From Planctomycetota bacterium (GTDB lineage: Bacteria; Planctomycetota; UBA8108; UBA1146), in assembly GCA_965661685.1 (NCBI GenBank), contig CBFIET010000175.1:20160-84159 (forward strand): 64,000 nucleotides of DNA. Direction: 5' to 3'. The position numbers and the translations under genes were made by a program. The notes beneath the pieces are model-generated. The model searched no databases, was not told where the DNA came from, and was given only the letters and a program-made list of their open reading frames with translations. Shown in pieces: positions 32,654 to 32,881 of the stretch (positions are counted from its first letter, which is position 1; the number at the start of each line of letters is the position of its first letter).

Positions 32654-32881
<228 letters not shown>

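Follow-up and report, generated by a model that had tools for sequence, protein, structure and literature searches.

Does the hairpin that the mRNA can form just downstream of an in-frame UGA in a selW-like gene act as a bacterial SECIS element, so that the UGA is read as selenocysteine, or is the UGA an ordinary stop codon beside which a hairpin happens to fold? The question is raised by a locus on the minus strand of a 64,000-nucleotide stretch of planctomycete DNA, which as a whole is referred to here as the window. The hairpin, GGCCACCA-GUU-UGGCGGCC, lies at 32834..32816 on the minus strand, and the full 19-mer reads GGCCACCAGTTTGGCGGCC. Judged from sequence comparison, it is very probably a bacterial SECIS element located inside the gene of a SelW-like (Rdx, CxxU) selenoprotein. 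We found that the position of the hairpin, the G-U of its loop and its base pairs, the last with compensatory changes, are conserved only where the UGA is present.

The selW-like gene and the hairpin behind its UGA

Translation of the minus-strand open reading frame gives the product MEISIEYCVQ-U-NYTPQATSLAAE...SKQS or, with stops written as asterisks, MEISIEYCVQ*NYTPQATSLAAEIDQKYGSSTRLIEGSGGVFEVCVEGELIFSKKELGRFPENSEIYSAIDSKQS*. When Cys was put in place of the UGA, residues 2-71 matched the Pfam Rdx domain (PF10262) with E = 9.6e-21 over profile positions 1-73 of 74, the NCBIfam model NF041051 ("SelT/SelW/SelH family (seleno)protein") scored 99 bits against a cut-off of 88, and TIGR02174 (CXXU_selWTH) scored 64 bits, which is above its cut-off. 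The product has both of the marks by which SelW-like/Rdx selenoproteins are recognized, namely an Rdx domain and an N-terminal CxxU/CxxC motif. The motif is C8-V-Q-U11 with the UGA as its second position, and in 160 related loci the UGA is aligned with the Sec/Cys position of CxxU/CxxC. The features of the locus are collected in Table 1.

Table 1. Features of the selW-like locus. Positions are those of the window; nt numbers count from the U of the UGA as 1.
Feature	Position	Strand	Remarks
Probable Shine-Dalgarno sequence GGAGAAGGG	32887..32895	minus	5 nt upstream of the ATG; from reading the sequence
SelW-like (Rdx family) selenoprotein gene, predicted	32654..32881	minus	75 codons
Start codon ATG	32881..32879	minus	
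Cys codon TGC of the CxxU redox motif	32858..32860	minus	Cys in 42/42 clade members
In-frame UGA, predicted selenocysteine codon	32849..32851	minus	codon 11; from sequence and translation
Spacer from UGA to stem, AACUACACGCCUCA	32835..32848	minus	14 nt; codes N-Y-T-P-(Q)
5' arm of hairpin, GGCCACCA	32827..32834	minus	nt 18-25; from folding and pair counts
Apical triloop G26 U27 U28	32824..32826	minus	G26/U27 are the predicted SelB contact bases
3' arm of hairpin, UGGCGGCC	32816..32823	minus	nt 29-36; from folding and pair counts
Cross-phylum core	32818..32832	minus	nt 20-25 with nt 29-34, and loop; includes the clade-specific A22·C32 mismatch
Terminal stop TGA	32656..32654	minus	

RNAfold of the 19-mer gave ((((.(((...))).)))) at -9.9 kcal/mol. 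The stem has eight stacked positions, made up of seven pairs (six G-C/C-G and one A-U) and one A·C 1x1 mismatch, and the same hairpin forms when 62 nt, counted from the UGA onward, are folded to minimum energy. The hairpin nucleotides also code for Q-A-T-S-L-A-A, and RNA structure would therefore constrain both codon and amino-acid choice in this segment. Further upstream, in the spacer, the third positions of Thr and Pro vary freely (1.78 and 1.91 bits) among the 42 distinct genes of the window's clade that encode an identical U-NYTPQATSLAA while their overall identity falls to about 50%; these sites are thus without constraint at the RNA level. An earlier note on this DNA had described the hairpin from the sequence alone, and its coordinates, the 14-nt spacer, the A·C mismatch and the GUU loop are all borne out by sequence and RNAfold, as is the overlap with the coding sequence. 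Folding of 32790..32851, which that note had proposed as a check, returns the hairpin within the minimum-energy fold, at a context z of -0.72. Its description of an 8-bp stem with one mismatch was right as to the mismatch, but strictly the stem consists of 7 bp plus that mismatch.

On the single sequence, the hairpin is only mildly unusual and the evidence is weak. The stability of the 19-mer corresponds to z = -2.6, with 6 of 200 shuffles equal or better, and the 62-nt context is unexceptional when set against its shuffles. An empirical null was obtained from all 2364 TGA trinucleotides of the window, taken on both strands: 8.4% are followed by a hairpin that satisfies loose bacterial-SECIS criteria, 3.3% by one of equal or greater stability, and about 0.2% share the geometry of a G[G/U] loop no longer than 4 nt that begins at +22..+27. 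The five other TGA sites of the window with similar geometry are all out of frame, antisense or intergenic with respect to real genes. A looser scan in which an open reading frame was required on both sides still left about 15 TGA sites in the window, and this result, together with the TGA null, means that a hairpin after a UGA is not diagnostic alone. That such hairpins abound is a familiar problem when bacterial selenoproteins are predicted from SECIS elements. Control segments taken from these genes are almost as good at folding (-7.1 versus -9.6 kcal/mol), and since the context was no better than shuffles and the control segments were nearly as stable, stability was dropped as a sole argument. 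The significance of the hairpin comes instead from comparative data. An Rfam scan of 32400..33100 at E <= 10 gave neither a SECIS nor any other credible family. A covariance model built from the homologue alignment, a check that had also been proposed beforehand, matched the selW site as its sole site in the window at 60.9 bits, a score that is partly circular because the window sequence was in the training set.

Conservation of the hairpin in UGA and Cys forms

A scan of genomes, with one genome taken per species, gave 80 loci, and the codon aligned with the UGA was TGA in 77 of them and TGC or TGT in 3. The nearest relatives are marine Planctomycetota MAGs, with 97% identity at one locus (L001). 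A metagenome scan seeded with three Cys forms gave 80 more loci; typing of 77 of these by script yielded 42 TGA and 35 TGC/TGT, and L110, L148 and L151 were recognized as Cys forms on inspection, which brings the metagenome Cys forms to 38 in all. The UGA forms derive from Planctomycetota, Verrucomicrobiota, Chloroflexota, Firmicutes, deltaproteobacterial, Nitrospirota-like and other sources.

Hairpins were searched for by a permissive rule (loop of 3-6 nt, G[G/U] at position 1 or 2, one 1x1 mismatch allowed). A hairpin of at least 5 bp was present in 112/112 distinct UGA forms, and in 105 it had at least 6 bp. The loop G stands at +26 in 98 of the 112 and at +22 in another 12 (U of UGA = 1). 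By the same rule, 9 of 32 distinct Cys forms had at least 5 bp, at scattered positions and with unrelated loops; this contrast between Sec and Cys forms is not phylogenetically independent, because the Cys-form controls belong mostly to one clade. The loops that RNAfold gave for the genome-set Sec forms were GUU (49 sequences), GUC (10), AGUU (8), AGUUA (3) and GGUCU (2), with GGU, GUG and GGA as single cases. Metagenome Sec forms had the same loop types (GGUCU, GUU, GUC, GGU) and single instances of GUA and GGGCU, the exception being the metagenome Sec form L145, whose minimum-energy fold chooses an alternative GCC loop. In homologues of the Tissierellia/Clostridia type (L043, L053, L054, L056, L059, L061, L064, L066, L070, L071, L076 and L077), a second register was observed in which the loop G stands at +22, 4 nt closer to the UGA, in loops of 4-5 nt (AGUU/AGUUA).

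When all 75 sequences were aligned in codon register, RNAalifold recovered only 4 pairs at about 0 kcal/mol; this alignment mixes the +26 register with the +22 register of Tissierellia/Clostridia. For the formal count, the register-shifted sequences were removed. In the gapless alignment of 95 sequences used for it, whose columns are numbered by their distance from the U of the UGA, 83.1% of the cells of the 8-pair helix are paired, and both sides have changed in 51 cells. The covariation score was 0.270 against a shuffled mean of 0.142 and was reached by none of 500 shuffles, which ignore relatedness, and helices slid by 1-3 columns scored 0.05-0.12. G26 is invariant (95/95), and U27 is found in at least 90% of the aligned sequences. 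The pair counts are given in Table 2.

Table 2. Base pairs of the helix in the gapless 95-sequence alignment.
Columns	Pair types (sequences)	Unpaired or other
25-29	AU 78, GU 16	unpaired 0
24-30	CG 88, UG 4, UA 2	unpaired 0
23-31	CG 77, UA 15, UG 2	unpaired 0
22-32	GC 48, UA 3, AU 1	other 42 (A·C mismatch, window's clade)
21-33	CG 71, UA 8, GC 7, AU 4, UG 2, GU 1	unpaired 1/94
20-34	CG 91	other 3
19-35, 18-36	paired in ~55% only	

From these counts, the core that persists across phyla is nt 20-25 paired with nt 29-34, together with the loop; two outer G-C pairs and the central mismatch are further features of the window's clade. Columns 21 and 33, between which six pair types occur, are both third positions of codons. 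Amino-acid residues are coupled in a manner that mirrors the stem pairing: ACC..GCG encodes T..A with the A·C mismatch, GUC..ACG encodes V..T, AUC..AUG encodes I..M, and GCC..GCC and other combinations also occur. As the test of its proposal, the earlier note had asked whether compensatory changes maintain the stem among UGA-bearing orthologues, and they do: the hairpin recurs in 112/112 and pairs 21-33 and 23-31 covary. Of the stem that the note had drawn, the core is universal, but the outermost two G-C pairs belong to this clade in particular and form in only about 55% of homologues. The A22·C32 mismatch is invariant in the 42 clade genes. In a planctomycete homologue (L019:3031-3075), A22 has become G, which repairs the A·C, and G33 has become C, which makes a C·C one position outward; that helix still has one irregularity, the mismatch having been moved rather than repaired.

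The hairpin might be functional in some way other than as a SelB-binding SECIS, for example as a translational pause, an mRNA-stability element, an RNase site or a transcription attenuator. Such a role would accord with the lack of a bulged U like that in the E. coli element and with the fact that no Sec machinery was seen in the 64-kb window. However, conservation of the hairpin follows the UGA and not the gene, and the SelB-type loop G-U is kept at a fixed distance from that UGA, at +26 in 98 forms and at +22 in 12. In addition, the stem is of only moderate stability (-9.9 kcal/mol) and is followed by no U-run, and for want of the U-run it is not an intrinsic terminator. We consider a role of this kind highly unlikely.

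Synonymous sites bear on another explanation, namely that the ATSLAA helix after CxxU is kept for the sake of the protein, that its nucleotides are self-complementary by accident, and that the RNA has no function. The peptide NYTPQATSLAA is invariant in the 42 genes, as that explanation would have it, and the covarying residues T..A, V..T and I..M stand at i/i+3, where they could face each other in a helix. The third positions tell against it. In the Sec forms, the third-position entropies of codons 17-21 (A T S L A) are 0.32/0/0/0/0.32 bits, whereas those of the other invariant four-fold codons, T14, P15, G40, V44, G48 and P61, amount to 1.65-1.94 bits. Only two genes deviate at codon 17, L020 with GCU and L027 with GCG, and the partner codon 21 is GCA and GCC, respectively, so that both synonymous changes are compensated synonymously and the U-A and G-C pairs are restored. 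In the loop, a C in place of U27 would likewise leave the amino acid unchanged (AGU versus AGC), yet 42/42 clade genes have U there. In contrast, the Cys forms (36 genes) show 1.99/1.91/0.86/1.37/1.82 bits at codons 17-21, and those that also encode A-A-x-L-A vary synonymously, mostly without a hairpin. Because the same sites are frozen in UGA forms and free in Cys forms, selection beyond the protein acts at the nucleotide level, and only where the UGA exists. An accident of protein conservation accordingly carries very little probability. The data set provides an unusually clean textbook case of how an RNA structure within a coding region freezes synonymous sites and couples pairs of amino acids, and the homologues with a Cys codon serve as a built-in negative control.

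The UGA as a probable sense codon and the annotation of the gene

It could also be supposed that the UGA is a true stop and that the product is the 56-residue open reading frame starting at TTG 32824, with the hairpin either modulating that initiation or irrelevant. The TTG start does sit within the hairpin, and public protein databases hold only truncated versions of the protein, such as the 56-aa P0001 that begins at this TTG, together with similar ORFs (P0003, P0013, P0020 and P0022). Truncated annotation is, however, the usual fate of selenoprotein genes (PMC1088965), and several features of the locus argue against termination. Codons 1-10, which precede the UGA, conserve their amino acids among the 42 clade genes while their synonymous sites vary (I5, Y7 and C8 show little or no change, and the third position of V9 has 1.79 bits), which is the signature of translation and indicates that these ten codons are translated. 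With the upstream codons and the UGA included, the Rdx match is complete from profile position 1 and the CxxU motif is formed; the predicted Shine-Dalgarno sequence precedes the ATG at 32881 and not the TTG; and Cys forms carry TGC/TGT at exactly this codon. That the UGA ends translation here is scarcely credible. Chance structure in a GC-rich coding sequence has a negligible probability, since, despite the 3.3% of window TGA sites with an equally stable hairpin, the 8.4% that pass the loose bacterial SECIS criteria and the unexceptional 62-nt context (z = -0.72), the same hairpin stands in the same place with the same loop in 112/112 UGA homologues of many phyla and shows compensatory changes.

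An alternative genetic code, in which UGA would mean Trp or Gly, was rejected because other genes of the window terminate normally on TGA. The thyA gene, for instance, ends on TGA at its normal C-terminus, and at other places in the window, too, UGA serves as an ordinary stop.

With the UGA of the selW-like gene read as selenocysteine, the annotation gains a full-length 75-residue selenoprotein in place of the 56-residue fragment of public gene calls, and the same correction covers dozens of related MAG loci. Public calls for the SelW-like family (P0001, P0003, P0013, P0020, P0022 and P0002-P0021) were observed to be of two kinds. Those of the first kind (P0001, P0003, P0013, P0020 and P0022) are ORFs whose start codon lies inside or beyond the SECIS, and those of the second kind are full-length entries that show W at the position of the UGA, presumably from a code table in which UGA is Trp. 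Both kinds look like systematic misannotations of selenoproteins.

A case of a different sort was noted in the SelW-like homologue of an isolate, Ammoniphilus sp. YIM 78166 (L075:2994-3080; NZ_SDLR01000002.1), where the Cys codon of the CxxU motif is also TGA. The gene reads ATG GAC CAA ATT AAA TTA TCG CTT GAA TAT TGA ACT GGC TGA GGT, has only one downstream hairpin (CCGUCA-GUC-UGACGG) and is the sole double-TGA case among the 160 loci. Because both positions are TGA, a UxxU (diselenide) motif is possible, but a sequencing error or an inactivating mutation could equally account for it.

Comparison with known SECIS elements and proposed mechanism

The consensus published for bacterial SECIS elements has an apical loop of 3-9 nt on an upper stem of 4-16 bp, a G as first or second loop base, in most cases within an N1-G-[G|U]-N-N2 motif whose N1 pairs with N2, a distance of 16-37 nt from UGA to apical loop, and a minimum free energy of -7.5 kcal/mol or lower (PMC13188914, Fig. 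2). The selW hairpin is placed in the coding region just 3' of an in-frame UGA that is aligned with TGA or TGC/TGT in 160 loci. Its loop, GUU, has 3 nt, and its stem has 7 bp over 8 positions, which falls within the consensus only if the 1x1 mismatch is tolerated, since just 3 bp are contiguous with the loop. The sequence A25-G26-U27-U28-U29, in which A25 is paired with U29, follows the loop pattern; 22 nt (positions 4-25) separate the UGA from G26; and the 19-nt hairpin reaches -9.9 kcal/mol. The bacterial SECIS geometry claimed for the hairpin at the outset therefore holds on all four points of the consensus (PMC13188914). The hairpin also shows what is expected of a functional SECIS, namely compensatory conservation together with the UGA and relaxation where a Cys codon replaces it.

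In the paradigm, the SECIS of E. coli fdhF, a 17-nt stem-loop at nt 15-31 follows an 11-nt spacer and has a bulged U17 and the loop bases G23 and U24 (PMC8659212). The selW element resembles it in that the hairpin follows the UGA at a short, constant distance, the apical loop has a G-U as its conserved element, and the remaining stem sequence is free while pairing persists. It differs in its 14-nt spacer, with the hairpin at nt 18-36, and in the place of the G-U, which is found at +26/+27 rather than +23/+24, a shift of 3 nt downstream, or one codon. The selW loop is a triloop GUU closed by A-U, whereas that of fdhF is GGUC. The bulged U, which is essential in fdhF, is absent from selW, where the sole irregularity is the A22·C32 1x1 mismatch four nt 5' of the loop G. 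Nor does selW have a conserved long lower stem that extends to the UGA; the 62-nt fold does predict the pairs U15-A38 and C16-G37, and these involve freely varying synonymous sites. The selW element is thus not of the E. coli fdhF type in detail. It is conceivable, though rather unlikely, that the A22·C32 irregularity is itself selected and that, with the GUU triloop at +26, it provides a lineage-specific mode of SelB recognition in place of the E. coli bulged U.

SECIS elements of SelW-like genes have been described from the Sargasso Sea and GOS metagenomes (Zhang, Fomenko, Gladyshev 2005, PMC1088965; Zhang, Gladyshev 2008, PMC2398784) and are captured by the bSECISearch consensus model; the GOS data contained 427 Sec against 56 Cys forms. 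With these, the present element shares the Rdx/SelW-like CxxU family, a coding-region stem-loop immediately 3' of the UGA, a small loop with a conserved G followed by U, a spacing within 16-37 nt and an energy below -7.5 kcal/mol, as well as marine origin, its nearest relatives being planctomycete-type MAGs. There is no difference in kind; the window's clade has the mid-stem A·C 1x1 mismatch and the two outer G-C pairs, neither of which is present in about half of the homologues. The element is an ordinary example of a well-known kind, in the commonest and best-known marine selenoprotein family, and the finding leaves knowledge of selenocysteine decoding unchanged. The sole mildly unusual point is the clade-invariant mid-stem mismatch, which in L019 is shifted and not repaired.

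Where Sec has been converted to Cys, remnant SECIS-like hairpins behind the Cys codon have been reported (Zhang et al. 2006, PMC1794560, Fig. 4). Two of our Cys forms match this description: L118 (TGC), which is close kin of the Sec forms L126 and L131, retains 7 bp with a GUU loop at +26, and L065 retains 4 bp with a GUU loop at +26. This pattern looks like a recent Sec-to-Cys conversion with a remnant SECIS. Unlike these two, the gene of the window retains its UGA, and its hairpin would be the active form rather than a remnant.

If the hairpin acts according to the model established in E. coli and Moorella, decoding of the UGA would proceed as follows. As the ribosome nears the UGA (32851..32849), the mRNA 14 nt downstream would fold into the stem of 7 bp and a mismatch that is capped by GUU, and SelB would bind, through its C-terminal winged-helix domains, to G26 and U27 in the loop and to the stem next to them. 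The SelB·GTP·Sec-tRNA(Sec) complex would thereby be tethered beside the A site, and the UGA would be read as selenocysteine instead of stop. The outcome would be a 75-residue protein with a Cys8-x-x-Sec11 redox centre. By analogy with this model, SelB binding and Sec insertion are presumed to take place at the locus, and selA, selB, selC and selD presumably lie elsewhere in the genome. Complete sets of Sec-insertion genes have been reported in several Planctomycetes (PMC4807772). Within the present data, neither the 64-kb window nor the flanks of 42 related loci contained any tRNA gene, tRNA-Sec included, and no selA, selB or selD was found among 50 window ORFs scanned against NCBIfam or Pfam. 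A search of the window for a second selenoprotein gene or SECIS by a scan for hairpin plus ORF returned implausible candidates only (such as the natural stop of thyA and antisense ORFs), and the covariance model gave no further window site.

Several large EF-hand or FG-GAP/TPR-repeat proteins are encoded in the window, at 2381..3688 (+), 5535..6620 (-), 9206..10726 (-), 27631..30933 (+) and 57444..59279 (-); these are typical of planctomycete genomes and are unconnected with the SECIS finding. A 356-aa protein encoded at 43605..44675 (-) has a weak match to NCBIfam NF041425, the "OS_HP2 family (seleno)protein" (60.8 bits, cut-off 100). It carries SCGC where that marine selenoprotein family has UxC and is therefore a Cys-form relative of another ocean selenoprotein family.
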